A stretch of 64,000 bases of DNA, from the NCBI GenBank assembly GCA_026397315.1, contig JAPLVC010000007.1, positions 45,450 to 109,449 of the forward strand. The letters are read 5' to 3'. A model generated the notes under the pieces. The model was not told where the DNA came from and ran no database searches. It saw only the letters and a list, made by a program, of their open reading frames with translations. The translations under genes and the position numbers were made by a program. This stretch comes from Candidatus Aenigmatarchaeota archaeon. Lineage in GTDB: Archaea; Aenigmatarchaeota; Aenigmatarchaeia; QMZP01; QMZT01. Below, piece after piece: positions 1 through 64,000 of the stretch; position 1 is the stretch's first letter, and every line of letters starts with the position of its first letter.

Positions 1-528
1 ATAAAGGATTACATCCAGACATACTCGCCGGACAAGGAAGAACAGAAATGGATAAAGGCGATAATAATGACTGAAAGCGGTTATGTCCATTGCAGCGGTT
101 CGACCGTGGGGGCGTTCGGCTTCATGCAGCTCATGGAAATCGCCGCGAGGGACGTGGGCATAAGCGACAGGTTCGACCCTGAGCAGAACATCGATGGCGG
201 CGTGAGATACTACAGGAAGCTCGTGCAAAAATACGAATCCTACGACGACAAATACGTGCTGGCTGTCGCCAGTTACAACTGCGGCAAGATAGGCACTCTC
301 GTGTCGCAGAACTGCGACGCGCAGAACATATACATCGGCTGCTGGGAAAAGGCCGTCAGGGAGTTCACGCGTGAGAAGGAGTGCCAGGGCAGCGGCGGCA
401 AGGAAACTTACAACTACGTGGACAGGGTAAAGACATGCGTGAAATATTACGAGCAAAACCCGGAATGCTACAACAGTCCGGGCACGGGCAGCTCGTGCCC
501 TAAAAGCAGTGACTGCGGAAACTGGTGA
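1..528 (+). CDS. Lytic transglycosylase (SLT domain) protein, 5'-truncated by window edge
   Basis: SLT catalytic motif region (TESGY...S...GA.G.MQLM) in ORF 67..528; the reading frame is open back to nt 1, so the gene starts upstream of the window. Confidence 0.6.
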   Translation: MKDYIQTYSPDKEEQKWIKAIIMTESGYVHCSGSTVGAFGFMQLMEIAARDVGISDRFDPEQNIDGGVRYYRKLVQKYESYDDKYVLAVASYNCGKIGTLVSQNCDAQNIYIGCWEKAVREFTREKECQGSGGKETYNYVDRVKTCVKYYEQNPECYNSPGTGSSCPKSSDCGNW

Positions 529-531
529 AAT

Positions 532-1314
532 ATGCTTAAAAAAATGAAAGGCGGCATAAGTGAATCGCCATGGACAATCTGGGCAGTCATAATATTCGCG
601 GCCGTCATCGTCGCTGGTTCATTTTTCCTCAATTCGTATTATATCGATTACGCGGCATTTCTGAAAACTCCGCCGGAAAGGCTCAAAGCGCTTGAAGCAA
701 CCAACGCCGTGCGCGGGTGCCTGCTTAACGGGAAGCCTTACGTGACGAAGGACTTTCTCGACGAGAACAGCGGCGAGGACATAGACGACCTGTGCGGCTT
801 CGAGGACCCGGGTACAGAAGCCGACGTCCTTGACACGCAAACCGGCCAGAAGTGGGGTCTGAGCTCGAGTCTGAGCAAAGCGGACCACTCGGTCTGGATT
901 CCGATTGCTTACACAGGTTTTCAGGAAATAACCGATGTCAATTACGCTTTAAGCGGAGAATATGTCATACATGCGAAGTGGCTAGGCGTCGGGGTGCTTA
1001 ACATAAAAGCCAACGACGTCATTTTGGAATTATATCCTTCGGCGCTTTACCCGGGCGGATCAAGCAAGCTTGAAAGCGTCACCTCTTCCAAAGTCAGGGA
1101 ATGGATAGAAAAGCTGGTTGATGCTGACAACCCCGAAGGCACGCAGAAGGCGGACCTGACAGGCATGAACATAATGGCGATAATCCCGTCAGAATACAGT
1201 CTCAAAGAATGCAGTTCGGTTGGCGACCTGCTTTCCCACGAGGCCTGCGTGAAAATGTTTACGGGGGTAAAAGAAATTCATTTAGGGAGACTGAACGTCG
1301 ATGTTACGCTCTAA
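532..1314 (+). CDS. Hypothetical membrane-anchored protein (one N-terminal TM helix)
   Basis: 260-aa ORF tightly packed between the SLT and M23 genes; hydrophobic N-terminus (WTIWAVIIFAAVIVAGSFFL); no recognisable domain. Confidence 0.45.
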   Translation: MLKKMKGGISESPWTIWAVIIFAAVIVAGSFFLNSYYIDYAAFLKTPPERLKALEATNAVRGCLLNGKPYVTKDFLDENSGEDIDDLCGFEDPGTEADVLDTQTGQKWGLSSSLSKADHSVWIPIAYTGFQEITDVNYALSGEYVIHAKWLGVGVLNIKANDVILELYPSALYPGGSSKLESVTSSKVREWIEKLVDADNPEGTQKADLTGMNIMAIIPSEYSLKECSSVGDLLSHEACVKMFTGVKEIHLGRLNVDVTL

Positions 1315-2332
1315 AAATAAAAAGGGGATAGCGGACTTTGCGTTGTTCGTCGTGATAGCGATAGCGGTCGTATCGCTCATACTCGTTGCCAGCTGGCTGG
1401 GAAAGGTGCTTGGCCAGGGTAGGCAGCTAGTCAAAGTCAAGGGAGTGGTGGACGTTTACGTCAACCTTGACGACAAAGGCAGCGAGTTCAGCTTTCTGGA
1501 AGCCAAAAATGGCGATTATGATTTCATGGAAATTCTCGGCGTCGTGGGATCCGGAGCCAAGATAGGAGGCGACCTTAAAGCCCAGATGGAAAATGTGGAA
1601 AAAAGCATCGAAAGGATAAAGAATTCCGACAAGAAAAATTTCTACATATCCGTCATAAGCCCGGAGGGTAAAGTGGTGTATGAGAAGAAAAGCGGCAATC
1701 CGCCGCTCGTCGTGGGAACGGGCGGAGAGGACATACTGCTAAAATGGCCGCTGGACGCCAGCAACTATGAGATAATATCGGGTTTCGGGTGGAGAAAAGA
1801 CCCATTCTCAGGCAAGGACTCGTTCCACGGCGGTATAGACATACCGGGAAATCTGGGAGACCCCGTTTACAGCGCAACGGACGGAACCGTATACAGGACG
1901 GTAAACAATGATGCGGATTTGGGCAATTTTGTCGTTATAAAATACACATCACAAAGGACGAACACGCCGTATTACGTTTATTACGGACACATGCAGGGCT
2001 TTTCCGTAAGAACTGGTGACAGTGTGAAGATCGGAGAGGAGATAGGGAAAGTTGGCTCCACCGGCAAATCACAGGGCCCGCACCTGCATTTCGAGATAAG
2101 AAAAGACAAAAACGGCGACGGCAATTTAGCGCCAGACGCAGAGTCGGTAAACCTCTGCCCGTATCTCACAGGCGCGTCAGGCGGCATTGTCGACTCAAAA
2201 ACTTGCATGAAAAAATGCCCGGTATACGAGAATCCGGACTCATGCGATTCTGATATGACGGTCGTCACGAACAGGTTTGACATACCTGTTCCGGGCGGAA
2301 AGAAAGGCTACGTGGAGCTGATGCTATGGTAA
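1301..2332 (+). CDS. M23 family metallopeptidase (LytM-like), N-terminal TM anchor
   Basis: M23 motifs HGGIDI...D, YYGHM and GSTG...GPHLHFEI; overlaps the upstream gene by 14 nt and the downstream gene by 7 nt (operon). Confidence 0.75.
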   Translation: MLRSKNKKGIADFALFVVIAIAVVSLILVASWLGKVLGQGRQLVKVKGVVDVYVNLDDKGSEFSFLEAKNGDYDFMEILGVVGSGAKIGGDLKAQMENVEKSIERIKNSDKKNFYISVISPEGKVVYEKKSGNPPLVVGTGGEDILLKWPLDASNYEIISGFGWRKDPFSGKDSFHGGIDIPGNLGDPVYSATDGTVYRTVNNDADLGNFVVIKYTSQRTNTPYYVYYGHMQGFSVRTGDSVKIGEEIGKVGSTGKSQGPHLHFEIRKDKNGDGNLAPDAESVNLCPYLTGASGGIVDSKTCMKKCPVYENPDSCDSDMTVVTNRFDIPVPGGKKGYVELMLW

Positions 2333-3492
2333 AATTCAAGGGCATGACGATAAACATCCTCAGCGTAGGCCTGATAATACTCGTTTCCGTGATTCTTTAT
2401 GCGTTCCTCAACCCGCTATCGCAGCCGCATTCGTCTGAATACGCGAAAACGGATATCTATGTCATGAAAAACGCCCTAGATTCGTCCAAAGTCTATTTGA
2501 GGGCGTCTTTCGATTATGCTGTTTACCAGGCGCTTTACGACGTTTCGAGAAAGGGAGGGTTTAGCGACGCCCAAAGCCAGTCCGCATACGCTAACGCTCT
2601 GGCGCCTGTCATATCATGCCAGAAAACCGACAAAAGAATCGGTGAGCCGGAAAAGATAATCGGCTGCGTTCCCGGCGAATACGGATGCCCAGACAGCGAC
2701 GGCAAAGATGCTTACATAAACGAAGGTTACCAGGTAGGCCTCTTGCAATTCCTGCTAAAAGACCTTAAATACGAACTTACCGTTGACTGCAAGTTTGGCA
2801 AGGGCAGCCTGGAAAAACTCAAGGAATTCCAGAAAGACAAAGGCCTTACTGAAAGCGGTTTCCTTGACGACGCCACGACGGAGAAGCTGAAAGAATCCTT
2901 TGCTTACGATAACTGCGGGGATTATTTTTACGGATGCACGAACAGTTTTTCTGCCGTATGGAGCACGGAACTCGCAGAAGACCAGTTCAAAAGTAACATC
3001 AAGAATGAGATCGTAAAAAACATGAACTCATACACGTCAAAAGGATACGTCTTCCTCGACCTTCCAATAACAGGTCTTCCGCAATACAAAACCGACAAGA
3101 TTACGATTTCCGAATCCGGGACTGGATTGAAAGTCTCGCTCAGCGGGGATAACATAAAAATATCAAAGAAAGATGAATATGAAGTCATTGACATAGCGTC
3201 ATCGTCCGACATGGAAAAAATATACGATATAGATGCCTTCGGCATTTACAGGAAAGCAAAAAGCGTATACAACGACATTAAAAGCAAAGGATGCGATGCC
3301 GCAAAAGACGAAACGAAAACTGAAGGCGGATTTAAAACTGAAGTGAAGATCGTGAGCAAGACGACGAACCCTGAATGCTCCGCTAAAGTCAGGGTCTCGG
3401 TGGTGGAAGAAAATCCTAAAAAAGTTCCTGTCTTCAACGGACGTTCCGTATCTTTCGAGCCGGTTAACATGATTTTAATGTTGAATTTGTAA
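2326..3492 (+). CDS. Membrane-anchored protein with peptidoglycan-binding (PG_binding_1-like) domain
   Basis: N-terminal TM helix; the segment DCKFGKGSLEKLKEFQKDKGLTESGFLDDATTEKLKE fits the PGBD consensus (FG..T...v..FQ...GL..dG..g..T...L). Confidence 0.5.
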   Translation: MVKFKGMTINILSVGLIILVSVILYAFLNPLSQPHSSEYAKTDIYVMKNALDSSKVYLRASFDYAVYQALYDVSRKGGFSDAQSQSAYANALAPVISCQKTDKRIGEPEKIIGCVPGEYGCPDSDGKDAYINEGYQVGLLQFLLKDLKYELTVDCKFGKGSLEKLKEFQKDKGLTESGFLDDATTEKLKESFAYDNCGDYFYGCTNSFSAVWSTELAEDQFKSNIKNEIVKNMNSYTSKGYVFLDLPITGLPQYKTDKITISESGTGLKVSLSGDNIKISKKDEYEVIDIASSSDMEKIYDIDAFGIYRKAKSVYNDIKSKGCDAAKDETKTEGGFKTEVKIVSKTTNPECSAKVRVSVVEENPKKVPVFNGRSVSFEPVNMILMLNL

Positions 3493-3655
3493 TGCAGCCA
3501 GCGCTGGGAACGTCCCGCGCATAGATTTGTTTTTCAACCACGTTTCAAACCTTTTAAAAGCGCCGAATTAATGATAAAATAGCCAGGCCAACTGGCGGAA
3601 ACAGGCAACGCATCATGGCAAAAAAGCGACGCGCATGACTTGGGAGGTGCTTAGC

Positions 3656-3982
3656 ATGGCAGAGGAAAACGCTGAGACAAGAAGCGAAGCGAAAGAGAGC
3701 AAATACAGGTTCAGAGAGAACGACAACGTGATATTCGTCGGGAGTAAGCCGACAATGTCATACGTGCTTGCAGTGATGACCCAGTTCTCCGGTGGGACGA
3801 ATGAAGTGCACATCAAGGCAAGGGGGCGTTCTATCTCGAGAGCGGTGGACGTCGTCGAAGTTGTGAAGAACAGGTTCGTCAACACGGCGAAGCACACGAT
3901 AGAGATAGGCACCGAGAAGATGCACGCGGAGAACAACATGGATATCAACGTGTCGACCATCGACATAAAGCTCGTGAAGTAA
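3656..3982 (+). CDS. albA: Chromatin protein Alba
   Basis: Strong similarity to Alba/Sso10b (NVIFVGSKPTMSYVLAVMTQF...HIKARGRSISRAVDVVEVVKNRF); GGAGGTG Shine-Dalgarno-like sequence precedes the internal ATG at 3656 in ORF 3635..3982. Confidence 0.8.
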   Translation: MAEENAETRSEAKESKYRFRENDNVIFVGSKPTMSYVLAVMTQFSGGTNEVHIKARGRSISRAVDVVEVVKNRFVNTAKHTIEIGTEKMHAENNMDINVSTIDIKLVK

Positions 3983-4052: not shown

Positions 4053-4241
4053 TGCGGGGGCGGAGAGTCGAACTCCGGAAGGCACTAAGCCACAGGATGG
4101 CTTATGAGGCTTTTTGTTCACAGACACCAGGTCTCGCAACTTAAAGTCCTACCTTAAGTTTGGCAAAGACAGTTCGACAATGATTTTGTTCATTATCTTT
4201 CGCTGTCTTTCCTGCCCCTTTGACCACTCGGGAACCCCCGC
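4053..4241 (-). tRNA. Intron-containing class II tRNA (tRNA-Leu-like, A73 discriminator), about 189 nt with about 105 nt of intronic sequence
   Basis: Minus-strand read: acceptor GCGGGGG/CCCCCGC, D-arm CCC-GAGTGGTCAAAG-GGG (class II Leu-like), T-arm CGGAG-TTCGACT-CTCCG, 15-nt variable arm TGGCTTAGTGCCTTC, A73, no encoded CCA. The putative anticodon stem CAGGA/TCCTG encloses 112 nt; a CTTAAGG loop (anticodon UAA) sits in the middle of that insert. Confidence 0.6.
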
Positions 4242-4289
4242 AATTAGAATTAATTAATCCGGATTAATAAAAAGCAGTTTCGCCAGCGC

Positions 4290-5414
4290 TCACTTTAAGA
4301 ACTTGTCTACCTGTTTCCTCGCGTGCTCCCTCTTCCTTGCGTGCTCGCGCAGAAACGCTTCCATCTTTTCCACGAGAATCTGCTTCAGTTCGCCTGAAAG
4401 CAGCTTGCCGGACTTGTAGTCGTCGTAAATCTGCTGCATCTTCTTGTCGTCGGGCTCGAATTGCGAGTAGAGATACTGGTAGGCGACGTCGATTTCCGGC
4501 ACGCCTCCTTTCTTGCGATGCTCCTCCAGCGTGTCTCGCCCTCCGGAGAAGGCGTATTTCATTATCTTGCTTTTTGCAGTGGCCGGGTCGTCCGTGAGGG
4601 CGATGTAGGAATACGGGTCCGAAGAGCTCATCTTCCCACCCTTGAGGCCCTTGATGAAAACATGATACGTCGACGATGGAAGCACGAAATTGTGCTCCTT
4701 CTCGAAGCGCGCCGCGATGTCCCTGCTTAGGCGTATGTGCGGGTCCTGGTCCGCGCCGACGGGCACGACGACGTGCCTGTAGCCGCCGAATTCAGGCAGC
4801 ATGGGATGGAGGATGTCCGCGACCTGCGTCATGACCGACATTACTTTTCCCGGCGTGATTTCGCCGTAAACGGCCTTCATCTCGTTGAACGTGACCTTCT
4901 TAGCGGCCATGCCGGACAGGCGGTAGAACGCGTTGGCTTTGTCCGGGTCTTTCGAGCGCGCGCTCTGGAAGTAGAAGTCGCAGTTCTTCGGGTCGAGCCC
5001 GAGAGCTATGTAATTGACCAGGTATTCGTTTATCGCGATTTCGCGCAGCTTATCCATGTCGTCTATGCGCATGTTGTATGCCTCGATGTCGGCGACGCAG
5101 ATGAACACCTTCGCTCCGAGCACTTTCTGATGGTAGATTATCTGCTCTGCCAGGATCTTGTGACCGAGATGGAACTTGCCCGAAGGCATAAGCCCCGTGA
5201 GCATGGCGTAACTCTCTTTTCTCGCGAGCGCGTCGAGAATCTTGTCGAAGTCGCGATGGCCGAACACGATGCCTCTTCTCATGAGTAAGTGAGGCTCCTT
5301 CATCCGCTTTAGTAACGGCTCGAACGGCTGGATGCCGAACTCGTCGCGCAGCTTGGCGTAATCCTTCACTTCCATTGATCCCCATGGATTTATTTCAGTT
5401 TTCATTTTCATCAC
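4290..5414 (-). CDS. trpS: Tryptophanyl-tRNA synthetase (archaeal/eukaryotic type)
   Basis: Class I motifs HLGH (GKFHLGHKILAEQ) and KMSSS; archaeal TrpRS-like length (374 aa). Confidence 0.85.
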   Translation of the reverse strand: MMKMKTEINPWGSMEVKDYAKLRDEFGIQPFEPLLKRMKEPHLLMRRGIVFGHRDFDKILDALARKESYAMLTGLMPSGKFHLGHKILAEQIIYHQKVLGAKVFICVADIEAYNMRIDDMDKLREIAINEYLVNYIALGLDPKNCDFYFQSARSKDPDKANAFYRLSGMAAKKVTFNEMKAVYGEITPGKVMSVMTQVADILHPMLPEFGGYRHVVVPVGADQDPHIRLSRDIAARFEKEHNFVLPSSTYHVFIKGLKGGKMSSSDPYSYIALTDDPATAKSKIMKYAFSGGRDTLEEHRKKGGVPEIDVAYQYLYSQFEPDDKKMQQIYDDYKSGKLLSGELKQILVEKMEAFLREHARKREHARKQVDKFLK

Positions 5415-11041: not shown

Positions 11042-12331
11042 CTAGCGCGTCACTTCTAGCTTGTTGACCGCTTCCAAAAGATCTTTGGCCTTCGCGTTCT
11101 TCTCGAAGTGCTGCCTGACCGGTTCTAGCAACTCGTTCAGGCGCAACGCCACTCCCGATTTCAGATCCATGGGGTGAATTTTGCCCTCGGCATATGCTTT
11201 CTCCAGTCCCGCGTAGCTTTCGAAAGACACGTCGCCTCCGAACTTCTCATGCCTTTTGATGTCAAAAGTCTTGAACTTCTCGAAGATTATGAACTTGCAG
11301 TATTCGAGGATCGGGTTTTCTGCAATCTGTTTCTCCGGGCAGTAAGCCTTGGAAATCTTGCGCTTCACTTCCTCCGGCGAATCGGTCATGAATATCGCGG
11401 AATCGGGCTTCGATTTGCTCATCTTCATGTCGATAGCACGTTCAGTCGCACTAATCACATGCTCAATTTTTATAGATCCGGGGAATAATTTATCATATAA
11501 TATTTTGATTTTTGAGCCATCTGGATAATTATACTCACTAATATTTTTTTTAATGAAGAATTTTTGTTTATCTACAACATCTTCCAAAAAGAACTCATCT
11601 GCTTCTCTATAATATTTAAACCTAGATGCTTTGTTGTAAATATCTAAATCTAGACTATATCTTAAACTAACTACAGGTTCTACTAATCCCATCATCATAT
11701 GGTGAGAGACGATGACCGGCTTCCAGTAGCCGAGCTTCGGGCCGATTTCGCGCGCGAGCACGTTGACCTTGCGCTGGTCCAGGCCGAGCTGGCATATGTC
11801 CGCCTTCAGATGAAAAATGTCCGCGGCCTGCATGCACGGGTAGAGAATCTGCGACGCCTGCTGCACGTCCGCGTCTTTCCGTCCCATTATCTGGCCGCAG
11901 CGGACGATTCTGTTGACAGTCGTGTTGCGCGCCACCTGCATGACCTTCTTCCAGTAGTCGTCGTCTTTCACGTGCCCTGAGGCCCAAACGAATTCTACGT
12001 TATCGGCGTCGAGGCCACACGACTTCCAGACCTCTATGAGGTATTTGCCTACCGTCTGTATGTTCTCGAGATTACCGCCCATCTTGTTGTTCGCCCAGCC
12101 GTGCCAGTCGGCAACCAGCATCTTGAACTTGCAGCCGGCGGAAGTCATTTTGTTTATGTTTATCGCCCGCAGTAGGCCCTGCGCTATGTGGACGTGCCCG
12201 CTCGGCTCGAAGCCATCATACGCTATCGGATGCTTTTTCTCCGCGAGCAGCGCCTTCAGCTCCTCAGGAGTGACTATCTCCCCGCCTTCGCCTACCTGCG
12301 AAACCAGCTCGAAGCGCTTTTCGACATCCAT
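11042..12331 (-). CDS. tyrS: Tyrosyl-tRNA synthetase (archaeal type) carrying an ~80-aa in-frame AT-rich insertion
   Basis: Close match to archaeal TyrRS (FEPSG...ADWH...QLGLDQRKVNVLARE...KMSKS...KFGGD...HPMDLK); 429 aa versus about 306-330 aa typical. Confidence 0.85.
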   Translation of the reverse strand: MDVEKRFELVSQVGEGGEIVTPEELKALLAEKKHPIAYDGFEPSGHVHIAQGLLRAININKMTSAGCKFKMLVADWHGWANNKMGGNLENIQTVGKYLIEVWKSCGLDADNVEFVWASGHVKDDDYWKKVMQVARNTTVNRIVRCGQIMGRKDADVQQASQILYPCMQAADIFHLKADICQLGLDQRKVNVLAREIGPKLGYWKPVIVSHHMMMGLVEPVVSLRYSLDLDIYNKASRFKYYREADEFFLEDVVDKQKFFIKKNISEYNYPDGSKIKILYDKLFPGSIKIEHVISATERAIDMKMSKSKPDSAIFMTDSPEEVKRKISKAYCPEKQIAENPILEYCKFIIFEKFKTFDIKRHEKFGGDVSFESYAGLEKAYAEGKIHPMDLKSGVALRLNELLEPVRQHFEKNAKAKDLLEAVNKLEVTR

Positions 12332-14499: not shown

Positions 14500-15759
14500 G
14501 TGTTTTGCATGATTGATATACGTTTCCTCGGTGGTTGCAGGGAAGTAGGCAGGATGGGCATGCTCGTCGATACGGGAGCCGAAAAATTCCTGTGGGAATA
14601 CGGCATAAACGTGGAGAACTGGGGCAAGCCCATAAAGCCGGAGATAAACTTCGACGGAGTTTTCGTCTCGCACGCGCATCTAGACCACTCCGGGCTTCTG
14701 CCGCAGATATACAGGGAGGGATACGAGGGCATGCTCTACAGTGACCCTACGACCATCGACCTGCTATCGATACTGCTCCGCGACTCGCTGAAGATACAAA
14801 AGAGCGAATGCAACGACATCGATTTTTTCATGGAAGACATAAAGCACCTCGAGCGCAACGCATCGTTCCTGAAGGCAGGCGAGACGCAGGACTTCACGCT
14901 TTCCAACGTGAGCTTCCACAACGCCGGCCACATTCCCGGGAGCGTCACAACTCTTCTCGAGAGCCGTGGGAAGCGCGTCCTCTTCACGGGCGACATAAAG
15001 TTCCAGGGAACCCAGCTCATGAACGGCGCTGACACCAATTTCCAAAACATAGACGTGCTCATCTCGGAATCGACTTACTCCTACACGAACCATCCCGACA
15101 GGACCGTCATAGAGAACGGTCTTAGAAAAACGGTGCAGAGAACCATATACGGCGGCGGCGTGTGCCTGATACCGGCGTTCGCTGTTGGCAGGACGCAGGA
15201 GATACTGCTCAACCTTAGCGACCTCGGCGTCCCAATATATCTGGACGGCATGGGTGTGCGCGCGACTGAAGCGATACTGCGCCACGCGAAAAGCATCAAG
15301 GATTACAAAAAGCTGAGCAACGCGTTCTCGCGTGCCCACAAGGTGACGAGAGGCAGCGAACGCGACAGGATAATAGAAAAGCCGTGCGCCATCATCACGA
15401 CAGCAGGCATGCTCAACGGCGGCCCGATACTGAGCTACCTTTCGAAACTGCATGGCAGGGAGGACTGCTCGCTCGTCATGACCGGATACCAGGTGCCCGG
15501 CACGGGCGGAAGGAATCTCATGGAAACCGGCAGGTTCGTGAGCGGCGAAATCGACGTGAGGCCGAGGATGCGCATAGAGTTCCTTGACTTCTCGGCTCAC
15601 ACGGACCACGACCATCTCATAGAATTTTACAAAAAGGTGAGGCCGAAGAAAATCGTCCTCGTGCACGGCGAGAAGACCGAGGAGTTCGCGAAAGAGCTGA
15701 ACGGCATGGGCTTCAACGCGGTCGCGCCCAAGAACGGCGACACTCTCAGGATAGACTGA
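14500..15759 (+). CDS. Metallo-beta-lactamase / beta-CASP ribonuclease (aCPSF2-like)
   Basis: HAHLDHSG motif, beta-CASP architecture, 419 aa. Confidence 0.75.
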   Translation: MFCMIDIRFLGGCREVGRMGMLVDTGAEKFLWEYGINVENWGKPIKPEINFDGVFVSHAHLDHSGLLPQIYREGYEGMLYSDPTTIDLLSILLRDSLKIQKSECNDIDFFMEDIKHLERNASFLKAGETQDFTLSNVSFHNAGHIPGSVTTLLESRGKRVLFTGDIKFQGTQLMNGADTNFQNIDVLISESTYSYTNHPDRTVIENGLRKTVQRTIYGGGVCLIPAFAVGRTQEILLNLSDLGVPIYLDGMGVRATEAILRHAKSIKDYKKLSNAFSRAHKVTRGSERDRIIEKPCAIITTAGMLNGGPILSYLSKLHGREDCSLVMTGYQVPGTGGRNLMETGRFVSGEIDVRPRMRIEFLDFSAHTDHDHLIEFYKKVRPKKIVLVHGEKTEEFAKELNGMGFNAVAPKNGDTLRID

Positions 15760-16341: not shown

Positions 16342-17385
16342 ATGATTGTAATTCCTGGTGAGTATGGCAGCGGGTCGGGAACGATAGTCAGGCTCGCAAC
16401 CGCATTTTCTGCGCTAACCGGAAAGCCGATAAAAATAACCGACATACGCGCGAAGCGTCCGAACCCGGGCCTGCGCCACCAGCATATCGAAGCGCTGAGG
16501 GCGATAGCGAAACTGAGCGGCGGAAAATTGAAAGGCGATGAAGTCGGCTCAAAGGAAATAGAGTTCACGCCAAAGAAAGTGAAGGGCGGAACTATTGACG
16601 TGGCGATAGAGACTGCCGGCTCCATAGGCCTGCTTGCTTATGCTGTCATGATTCCAGCTCTTTGCGCTTCCGGGAAAACGATTCTCAGGATAAAGGGCGG
16701 GTCCACCGCTAGTTTATGGGCGCCGCCGGTCTACTACATGGAAAACGTGCTGTTTCCGACGCTCGCGAAGATGGGAATCGACGCGAAATTCACCATAAAC
16801 ATGCATGGTTTTTTCCCCAAAGGCGGAGCAGACGTCGTGTTCGAGATAAGCCCCGCGAAGAAAGTCGCTCCCATAGTCATGAAGGAAGCCGGAGACGTCG
16901 AAACGATAACAGGCTTATCTATCGCATCGAATGACCTGAAATCCAGGAACGTAGCCGAACGGCAAATCGCCGGCTACCGCAGGATAATAAGGAAGGAGAA
17001 AGGCGTCGACATAAAACCGTTATACGTTAACGCCGCTTCGACCGGCTCGGCTTTCGTTGTCTGGGCCAAAACGACGACCGGATGCATTCTGTCGGGAGAC
17101 CACGTGGGCGAAGAGAAGAAGCCTGCCGAAGTCGCCGGAGAAGAAGCGGCATTCAAGCTGAAAGAAGAGATGGATTACAAATCGACCGTGGGCTTCCAGC
17201 TCGCGGACCAGCTCATTCCCTTCATGGCGCTCGCGTCCGGCAAATCAGAAATTCTCGTGCCGGAGCTTACGGATCACGTGAAGACGAACATATGGCTTTG
17301 CGAAAAGTTCCTCGGCTCGAAATTCGTCACCAAAGAGAACGGCGAGAATTTCAGGGTTTCCTGTTCCGGCCGCGCGTCAAAATAA
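16342..17385 (+). CDS. rtcA: RNA 3'-terminal phosphate cyclase
   Basis: N-terminus GEYGSGSGTIVRLATAFSALTGKPIKITDIRAKRPNPGLRHQHIEALRA matches the RtcA family. Confidence 0.8.
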   Translation: MIVIPGEYGSGSGTIVRLATAFSALTGKPIKITDIRAKRPNPGLRHQHIEALRAIAKLSGGKLKGDEVGSKEIEFTPKKVKGGTIDVAIETAGSIGLLAYAVMIPALCASGKTILRIKGGSTASLWAPPVYYMENVLFPTLAKMGIDAKFTINMHGFFPKGGADVVFEISPAKKVAPIVMKEAGDVETITGLSIASNDLKSRNVAERQIAGYRRIIRKEKGVDIKPLYVNAASTGSAFVVWAKTTTGCILSGDHVGEEKKPAEVAGEEAAFKLKEEMDYKSTVGFQLADQLIPFMALASGKSEILVPELTDHVKTNIWLCEKFLGSKFVTKENGENFRVSCSGRASK

Positions 17386-19617: not shown

Positions 19618-19728
19618 TGGACTCGTCGGGATTTGAACCCGAGGCCTCTTGGATGCGAACCAAGCGCTCTCTAGCGACTGAAGCAGGCGAACCTGCTTCC
19701 ATCGAAATTACCACTGAGCTACGAGCCC
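19618..19728 (-). tRNA. tRNA-Ala (anticodon CGC) with a 39-nt intron at a non-canonical position in the D-loop
   Basis: Minus-strand read: GGGCTCG-TA-GCTC-AGTGGTA-[intron ATTTCGATGGAAGCAGGTTCGCCTGCTTCAGTCGCTAGA]-GAGC-G-CTTGG-TTCGCAT-CCAAG-AGGCC-TCGGG-TTCAAAT-CCCGA-CGAGTCC-A. The G3:U70 Ala identity pair is present and there is no encoded CCA. The intron forms an 8-bp hairpin with a TTCG tetraloop. Confidence 0.75.
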
Positions 19729-63655: not shown

Positions 63656-64000
63656 TAGATGAAAAAACTTTACAAGAATGGACCGAATTATATAATATCG
63701 GTTGGGGTTCATACAAAATTGCTAAGAAATATGGCATTTCTATTCCTACCGTGCAAAAATATTTAAGAAAAGTTGGTATATTTAATGGGATTAGGACGCG
63801 AGACGCACGTATCAAAAATTTTGATAGTATGGCCAAAGAGAAGAATTGTATTGTGATAAAAGGTGATATATCTGACAATGAAAAAAGATGTGATCTGAGA
63901 TTTTCTCTCGGAAATCTTGACGGGGTGAAAATTGTTCCCAGATTTGATAAAGGATTTAAAAAAGTCCTTTTAATACCCAACAAAAATGGCCGCAAACTAT
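63652..64000 (+). CDS. Hypothetical HTH-containing protein, AT-rich, 3'-truncated by window edge
   Basis: Manual translation MIDEKTLQEWTELYNIGWGSYKIAKKYGISIPTVQKYLRKVG...; ATGA overlap with the purE stop; not in the ORF track on this strand. Confidence 0.4.
   Translation, partial: MIDEKTLQEWTELYNIGWGSYKIAKKYGISIPTVQKYLRKVGIFNGIRTRDARIKNFDSMAKEKNCIVIKGDISDNEKRCDLRFSLGNLDGVKIVPRFDKGFKKVLLIPNKNGRKL

Follow-up and report, generated by a model that had tools for sequence, protein, structure and literature searches.

Transfer RNA (tRNA) genes that are interrupted by several introns, some of them at non-canonical positions and bounded by bulge-helix-bulge (BHB) motifs, were reportedly described by Marck and Grosjean in 2003 and by Sugahara in 2007 and 2008. 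In Crenarchaeota, such multi-intron genes with non-canonical BHB introns are a familiar feature (PMC4090602), and DPANN variants of EndA with broad specificity have been linked to increased disruption of tRNA genes (Kaneta 2018, PMC5829648). The box C/D small RNA (sRNA) of the pre-tRNA-Trp intron is the standard case of an intron that guides the modification of its own tRNA (PMC4090602, PMC11408192). The elongator tRNA-Met intron of Nanoarchaeum equitans encodes a stable C/D-like RNA, and permuted circular sRNAs in which box D precedes box C are on record (Randau 2012, PMC3491384). In Pyrococcus, trans-acting C/D sRNAs target nucleotide 34 of tRNA-Leu(UAA), tRNA-Leu(CAA), tRNA-Met, and tRNA-Trp (reviewed by Breuer 2021, PMC7994747). 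The present analysis concerns a tRNA-Leu(UAA) gene at positions 4053-4241 of a 64,000-nt stretch of contig JAPLVC010000007.1 from a Candidatus Aenigmatarchaeota archaeon; this whole stretch is referred to below as the window.

The gene is very probably a functional tRNA-Leu(UAA) gene with two BHB introns, at sites 30/31 and 37/38, placed around a 7-nt micro-exon, as judged from the sequence and its relatives, and as a two-intron gene it belongs to the already known class of multi-intron BHB tRNA genes. The 189-nt span given in the original prediction proved exact, and the strand (minus) was added. The parts of the gene are as follows, where numbers beginning with L denote loci of relatives:

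4053..4241, minus strand: whole tRNA-Leu(UAA) gene, 189 nt, in the order exon 1, intron 1, exon 2, intron 2, exon 3 (from the sequence and the ARAGORN call on the spliced product)
4211..4241, minus strand: exon 1, 31 nt, with the acceptor 5' strand, D arm, G26, and nucleotides 27-30 (CAGG); contiguous with ACTTAAG in L002
4160..4210, minus strand: intron 1, 51 nt, site 30/31, strict hBHBh' motif (from the BHB scan and relatives)
4153..4159, minus strand: exon 2, the 7-nt micro-exon ACUUAAG, nucleotides 31-37, with anticodon UAA and G37
4099..4152, minus strand: intron 2, 54 nt, canonical 37/38 site, relaxed BHB motif (from ARAGORN and the minimum free energy (MFE) fold)
4053..4098, minus strand: exon 3, 46 nt, with A38, UCCUG, variable arm, T arm, acceptor 3' strand, and A73

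From G1 (4241) to the discriminator A73 (4053), the minus strand has the layout GCGGGGG-UU-CCC-GAGUGGUCAAA-GGG-G-CAGGA-[112 nt]-UCCUG-UGGCUUAGUGCCUUC-CGGAG-UUCGACU-CUCCG-CCCCCGC-A, and CCA is not encoded. This is a class II frame with acceptor stem GCGGGGG/CCCCCGC, a 3-bp D stem, a long variable arm, and T arm CGGAG-UUCGACU-CUCCG. All arms that the original prediction had assigned to a class II tRNA-Leu with A73 are thus present, as is the 112-nt insert between CAGGA and TCCTG; the roughly 105 nt of intronic sequence it proposed is accounted for by 51 nt plus 54 nt.

The unspliced locus gave no match with ARAGORN (default settings and -i) or with the Rfam tRNA model (gathering and E-value modes). 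At a lowered threshold, ARAGORN forced an Ala(agc) with one 105-nt intron, which was rejected for its lack of U33; none of the single-intron placements in the anticodon loop yields U33, in line with the earlier claim that no single 37/38 intron gives a valid loop. When both introns were removed in silico, the 84-nt sequence was called as tRNA-Leu(taa) by ARAGORN at default settings, with a cloverleaf that has a 15-nt variable region with a 3-bp stem, A73, and the loop C-U-UAA-G-A, all as expected for class II tRNA-Leu. Removal of intron 1 alone gave Leu(taa) with a 54-nt intron, placed after G37. Because the spliced sequence is called as Leu(taa) and the same gene stands in synteny in relatives, the locus was confirmed, at the level of sequence, as a genuine class II tRNA-Leu(UAA) gene and not a chance resemblance.

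A BHB search had been suggested with the original prediction, and the motif was found at both introns. All position pairs were scanned for four paired bases, two bulge bases, the cut, and one bulge base, together with flanking helices. The intron 1 pair scored 11 (central helix 4/4, outer helix 3, inner helix at least 5, extending to 7 bp at full length), a top score shared by three pairs. Its cut sites are GGCA-gg|a-AAGACAG on the 5' side and CUGUCUU-UGCC-aa|a-CUU on the 3' side. The central helix is formed by GGCA (4213-4216) and UGCC (4162-4165) and is bordered by the 3-nt bulges GG|A and AA|A, the inner helix by AAGACAG (4203-4209) and CUGUCUU (4166-4172), and the 3-bp outer helix by AGG and CUU. 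The strong hairpin AAAGACAG...CTGTCTTT noted previously does exist and is the inner helix of this motif. Excision of intron 1 joins CAGG to ACUUAAG and so completes the anticodon stem CAGGA/UCCUG. The other two pairs with the top score were rejected: the pair with its 5' site at 4146 and 3' site at 4084 would remove the 3' strand of the anticodon stem, and the pair with sites 4229 and 4171 would remove the D arm along with the 5' strand of the anticodon stem. At intron 2, the central helix consists of CUUA (nucleotides 32-35, 4155-4158) and UAAG (4101-4104), with 4/4 pairs; the cut sites follow G37 and precede A38, with the 3' bulge CC|A directly next to the 5-bp anticodon stem.

Syntenic contigs were obtained by exact-protein look-ups of homologues of the tryptophanyl-tRNA synthetase (TrpRS) encoded next to the tRNA, and the tRNA lies downstream of trpS in all syntenic contigs recovered. 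The same two introns are found in L001 (TrpRS 94% identical), with substitutions in intron stems and loops, and a homologue of intron 1 is retained in L004-6 (86%). Intron 1 is absent from L002/L003 (88%) and L007 (82%), which keep the canonical intron; L002 and L007 read CAGGACTTAAG through the predicted intron 1 junction, and the contiguous sequence across it in L002/L003 and L007 is GGGGCAGGACTTAAG. L007 (3617-3900) has four introns, in the D loop, at 37/38, in the variable arm, and in the T loop. The canonical intron is present in all syntenic orthologues.

Orthologues also fix both junctions. In several of them, L053, L105, and L081 included, the end of exon 1 reads CAGG followed by T, so A31 comes from downstream of intron 1 and the junction is set at 30/31. 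The base after CTTAAG varies among the orthologues (G, G, T, A, T) and the A before TCCTG is constant in the loci found by synteny, from which it follows that the mature loop is CUUAAGA and not CUUAAGG. The idea of two introns around a UAA loop therefore stood as to number, anticodon, and G37; their sites had been placed one nucleotide too far downstream (31/32 and 38/39 instead of 30/31 and 37/38), and the final G of the proposed loop CTTAAGG is replaced by A38 from the 3' exon.

When one genome per species was scanned with a pattern for this tRNA, at least 119 DPANN loci that include the canonical intron were obtained; the pattern demanded that intron and A38, so the scan covers intron-containing genes only. 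The intron numbers and sites that follow were derived from alignments and are approximate. Among 118 distinct DPANN tRNA-Leu(UAA) genes, 71 have one intron, 25 two, 13 three, 7 four, and 2 five, which means that 47 of the 118 carry two to five. The commonest extra site is 30/31 (15 genes among the 118). The GGCA/UGCC(U) central helix is shared by all sixteen distinct introns at this site, whose inner helices are mostly unrelated.

For splicing, EndA would cut both introns at the BHB motifs and a tRNA ligase would then join the exons, giving an 84-nt class II tRNA with the loop CUUAAGA. The motif of intron 1 (BHB1) pairs G25-A28 with the intron and nucleotides 32-34 with the 3' strand of the D stem, and the motif of intron 2 (BHB2) needs C27-A31 in the anticodon stem and nucleotides 32-35 in its central helix. 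Since both claim shared nucleotides (C27, A28, and 32-34), the two motifs cannot coexist. Once intron 1 is removed, the unconstrained MFE fold (-52.0 kcal/mol) is exactly the cloverleaf plus BHB2. Because this fold becomes the MFE structure only after removal of intron 1, we infer from the models that intron 1 would be spliced first and intron 2 second: intron 1 would be excised and its flanking exons ligated, BHB2 would then be favoured, and intron 2 would be excised in turn, a route that would avoid the release of a free 7-nt exon. Tocchini-Valentini is said to have described in 2009 such a stepwise creation of the next BHB in multi-intron crenarchaeal pre-tRNAs.

Intron 2 holds a further element, which in its sequence fits a kink-turn (K-turn) with D-like and C-like boxes, preceded by a segment complementary to the anticodon loop:

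4139..4146, minus strand: putative guide segment CUUUAAGU in intron 2, complementary to anticodon-loop nucleotides 31-37, with one extra U relative to the family sequence CUUAAGU
4134..4137, minus strand: D-like box GCGA, non-bulged K-turn strand; family consensus NUGA
4123..4133, minus strand: C-stem hairpin GAC-CUGGU-GUC, canonical stem of the K-turn
4115..4122, minus strand: bulge UGU and C-like box GUGAACA, bulged K-turn strand; family consensus R-U-G-A-N-N-N

The module of the window (4115-4146) can accordingly be written CUUUAAGU-U-[GCGA]-GAC-CUGGU-GUC-UGU-GA-ACA, and its order of guide, D, hairpin, and C corresponds to a terminal C/D motif that has been circularly permuted by joining its ends. 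The pattern CTTAAG-T-N-[N(U/C)GA] was present in 48 of 121 unique canonical introns, against 1.8 expected from shuffled sequences. In 44 of these 48 introns a spacer of 2 nt separates CTTAAG from the box, although the segments on either side vary in length (3-14 nt and 14-40 nt). In 33 of the 48 there follows a hairpin of 3 bp or more with NNN-GA behind it (mean 3.2 and maximum 11 in 500 shuffles), and 27 distinct hairpin stems occur among the homologous introns. The bases before the 3' GA, itself set by the search pattern, are R in 33/33 and U in 30/33, giving RUGA. Position 1 of the D-like box co-varies with position 6 of the C-like box (U.A 17, A.U 8, G.C 2, C.G 1); the pair is G.C in the window and becomes A.U in L084 ([AUGA]...UAU-GA-GUA) and L002. 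Members of the family without a stem have a K-loop instead of a K-turn.

The segment before the box suggests a target. CUUAAGU is the exact reverse complement of A31-G37, and the U that complements A31 follows CUUAAG in 47 of the 48 introns, which argues for complementarity and not for duplication of a palindrome. Of the nucleotides that precede the D-like box, the third away from it pairs with C32 and the fifth with U34, as the N+5 rule of box C/D guides prescribes. Intron 2 may thus be a minimal intron-borne guide for 2'-O-methylation of U34, a reading whose chances we regard as about even. The module would recruit L7Ae, Nop5, and fibrillarin for methylation of the wobble U34, which could take place within the precursor or be carried out in trans by the excised (circular) intron, as with the Haloferax pre-tRNA-Trp intron. 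The guide-paired conformer of the window precursor lies 1.5 kcal/mol above the BHB2 conformer, and by this modelling the two folds could alternate.

To test this reading, other tRNAs of the same organisms were examined, and modules of the same build were found in canonical introns of two of them on related DPANN contigs:

L122, 5474-5597: tRNA-Lys(UUU) intron with GUUAAAAG-NN-[box]-hairpin-AAU-GA
L127, match 1013-1083, minus strand: tRNA-Lys(UUU) intron with the same arrangement
L061, 6324-6443: tRNA-Lys(UUU) intron, variant
L128 and L129: tRNA-Lys(UUU) introns, variants
L033, 4569-4729, minus strand: tRNA-Met intron with GUUAUGAG-CU-[AUGA]-loop-GAUGAUU

The guide segments in the tRNA-Lys(UUU) and tRNA-Met(CAU) introns match the anticodon loops of their own hosts at the same 2-nt spacing, and nucleotide 34 again falls at N+5. 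It is an evenly balanced question whether these introns form a DPANN-wide family, mainly of Aenigmarchaeota, of single permuted K-turn guides that methylate nucleotide 34 of their own hosts (Leu-UAA, Lys-UUU, and Met-CAU).

A canonical box C/D sRNA was considered for either intron and rejected, because the insert lacks CUGA altogether and has no second pair of boxes. The window boxes agree with the box C/D consensus at 5/7 (GUGAACA against RUGAUGA) and 3/4 (GCGA against CUGA) positions; the geometry fits by sequence and the boxes are degenerate. Given these boxes and the lack of a second C'/D' motif, intron 2 was not filed as a canonical box C/D sRNA; it may nevertheless act like one in the form of a half-mer. 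The original prediction had allowed for a small RNA in the intronic sequence: the strong hairpin, in intron 1, carries no such signature, and the small-RNA-like element was found in intron 2. A K-turn or K-loop in intron 1 (GCGA...AUGAACA, including TGAACAAAA) was likewise rejected; its supposed box sits in an apical stem-loop, reads ACGAACA in L004 and is absent from L084, and the internal loop CGAAA/GAA misfits K-turn geometry. The 9-mer TGAACAAAA occurs in both introns (4184-4192 and 4112-4120, minus strand), preceded each time by GCGA, a possible hint that intron 1 originated by copying of the intron 2 module; but in L004 and L084, intron 1 has not kept the motif. Elsewhere in the window, a sub-threshold Rfam match to the C/D-box family sR2 was obtained at 63849-63900 on the plus strand (24.8 bits, gathering threshold 42, E = 0.24); the sequence, GTGATAA-12 nt-CTGA-CA-ATGAAAA-10 nt-CTGA, has typical archaeal C/D spacing, but lies inside an open reading frame (ORF) that runs off the window end.

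Several points weigh against the two-intron architecture. Intron 2 has an imperfect inner helix (U-A, A.C, G.U, G-C), which leaves its 5' splice site in a poorly delimited bulge; in the full precursor, BHB1 is not part of the MFE fold, the structure with BHB1 forced having -65.6 against -71.1 kcal/mol, 5.5 higher; and a Pfam scan of the roughly 60 ORFs of the 64-kb window found none for EndA, RtcB, L7Ae, Nop5, or fibrillarin, with the RtcA cyclase (16342-17385) alone turning up, so the processing and guide enzymes are assumed. Introns at 31/32 and 38/39 flanking CUUAAGG, with a mature loop carrying G37 and G38, would make use of the CTTAAGG that is present, and the contiguous CAGGA lets the 5' junction slide by one base on sequence grounds; this register is nevertheless very unlikely, as it has no BHB (central helix pairs 1/4), as ARAGORN puts the remaining intron after G37, and as the variable base after CTTAAG, the constant A before TCCTG, and the T after CAGG in L053, L081, and L105 all speak for 30/31 and 37/38. 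That the standard detectors fail, and that their sole single-intron solution is the implausible Ala(agc), would suit a disrupted pseudogene or a 105-nt insertion that is never correctly removed. Such a view is slightly less probable still, given that conservation of the exons contrasts with divergence of the introns in many genomes, that a BHB stands at both junctions, that promoter-like and terminator-like elements are conserved, and that synteny is kept beside TrpRS genes of 82-94% identity with intron content varying around identical exons. Intron 2 also contains UAGGACUUUAAG, which resembles one half of an anticodon stem with its loop and has the potential to pair with UCCUG, so that alternative splicing might yield a second tRNA from the internal UAGGA-CUUUAAG, with anticodon UUA, acting as a suppressor of UAA stops. 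This is scarcely credible: no BHB joins G26 to the copy or the loop of the copy to UCCUG, the best candidate has a 5-nt loop, the extra U is confined to the window and L001, and L084 together with 44 other introns has CUUAAG, the reverse complement of the real loop and hence the putative guide.

The methylation guide itself has a more serious competitor, namely that the K-turn of intron 2 is real and does not guide, but binds L7Ae or folds so as to organise the precursor or stabilise the excised intron, the CUUAAGU segment being ordinary pairing of anticodon and intron. This is possible, and we hold it for clearly less probable than the guide. The features that count against the guide are in large part those that favour this competitor: there is one K-turn or K-loop per intron and no duplicate C'/D' motif as in box C/D sRNAs; the guide duplex is short (7-8 bp); the window guide has an extra U, and its degenerate boxes GCGA and GUGAACA give a C.A at the 3n.3b position; and CUUAAG is palindromic, so that part of the complementarity costs nothing. 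Further points against the guide are the UUAG that replaces NUGA in L004-6 and L081 and the 3-4-nt spacers of four introns, and the overlap of the non-canonical stem with the BHB strand UAAG in short introns would suit a folding switch. On the other hand, the BHB already has a complement, UAAG, at the 3' end of the intron, which makes a second 7-nt complement surplus for splicing. Although indels are frequent elsewhere, 44 of the 48 introns preserve the spacing that puts nucleotide 34 at N+5, and the same spacing recurs with different guides in the tRNA-Lys and tRNA-Met introns. Position 34 of tRNA-Leu(UAA) and tRNA-Met is moreover a known C/D target in Pyrococcus (PMC7994747).

Two elements flank the gene:

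4264..4273, minus strand: TATA-like element TTTTTATTAA, with its centre some 27 nt before G1 and 17 nt past the trpS stop; conserved in L001
4037..4052, minus strand: T-rich tract CTTTCTTTATTTTCGC, adjoining A73 on the 3' side; a comparable tract is present in L001 and L002

By sequence and position the former is likely the promoter of the tRNA gene and the latter likely an archaeal terminator. The position of the TATA-like element also suggests a transcription start that probably coincides with, or lies very close to, the mature 5' end, with little or no leader.

The tRNA lies immediately downstream of trpS on the same strand, as had been claimed; the TrpRS ORF (4290-5414, minus strand) has homologues in PF00579. 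Its close homologues carry the label Aenigmarchaeota, which marks the organism as a DPANN archaeon, and an exact-protein look-up with the window TrpRS returned no matching record. In L004-L006 (3667-5517), an AAA_14/DUF4143 gene is inserted between trpS and the tRNA. The neighbour on the other side of the tRNA is an Alba gene (3635-3982), beside which a run of peptidoglycan-related genes extends over 67-3492 (plus strand) and comprises an SLT lytic transglycosylase (67-528), a Peptidase_M23 (1301-2332), and a PG_binding_1 protein (2326-3492). Relatives have similar genes at the same spot (M23 in L001, Amidase_3/GDSL in L002, and PG_binding_1 in L004), and these genes may be tied to a DPANN lifestyle that involves bacterial cell walls. 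Also near the tRNA are a beta-CASP/RMMBL ribonuclease (14500-15759, plus strand), the RNA 3'-terminal phosphate cyclase RtcA (16342-17385, plus strand), and a second class I W/Y-type synthetase (11042-12331, minus strand), probably TyrRS.

A search for other hidden tRNAs in the window with a T-arm pattern and low-threshold ARAGORN found intact T arms only in this gene and in tRNA-Ala(CGC) at 19619-19693 (minus strand), the sole tRNA found by standard tools. The Rfam match to the latter (29.3 bits against a threshold of 29) spans only model positions 7-64, and its acceptor and D regions may be unusual.

The failure of ARAGORN and Rfam on this gene, together with the multi-intron state of 47 of the 118 DPANN tRNA-Leu(UAA) genes, means that gaps in the tRNA sets of metagenome-assembled DPANN genomes can be artefacts of the tools rather than signs of loss or host dependence. 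The competing BHB motifs around a 7-nt micro-exon would offer a compact natural case of structurally enforced ordered splicing. If intron 2 does guide the methylation of U34, this would supply a selective reason for retention of the canonical intron and a minimal natural substrate for studies of half-mer C/D ribonucleoprotein assembly. A family of such guides would extend the single textbook case of tRNA-Trp to several tRNAs and would imply that a half-mer C/D module, possibly as a circular excised intron, suffices in vivo.

Compared with the multi-intron genes described from Crenarchaeota (Thermoproteales) and other DPANN archaea, the gene shares the combination of canonical and non-canonical BHB sites, intron numbers of up to several per gene, the mixture of strict and relaxed motifs, the escape from standard finders, and the link to broad-specificity EndA. 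It differs in its host lineage (Aenigmarchaeota), in the pair of sites 30/31 and 37/38, and in the 7-nt micro-exon between two mutually exclusive BHB motifs. With the tRNA-Trp intron, intron 2 has in common the canonical site, the K-turn boxes, a segment antisense to the anticodon loop of its own tRNA with nucleotide 34 at N+5, and guide pairing and BHB as alternative folds. The tRNA-Trp intron is a full double guide (C, D', C', D; about 105 nt), whereas the module described here has one K-turn, about 35-55 nt, and one target, its boxes are degenerate, and its hosts are tRNA-Leu(UAA) and, in relatives, tRNA-Lys(UUU) and tRNA-Met. The tRNA-Met intron of N. equitans, likewise from a DPANN archaeon, has one box D and one imperfect box C, and the same organism provides the precedent for the D-before-C order, with circular forms that restore the usual topology; its host tRNA is Met, no tRNA-Leu target or N+5 analysis was reported for it (PMC3491384), and the present module was followed across 48 distinct introns with co-variation. 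Finally, the Pyrococcus sRNAs have the same predicted target nucleotide, the wobble position 34 of tRNA-Leu(UAA), but for Leu and Met those guides are complete sRNAs that stand alone, whereas the putative guide described here lies within the intron of its own target.

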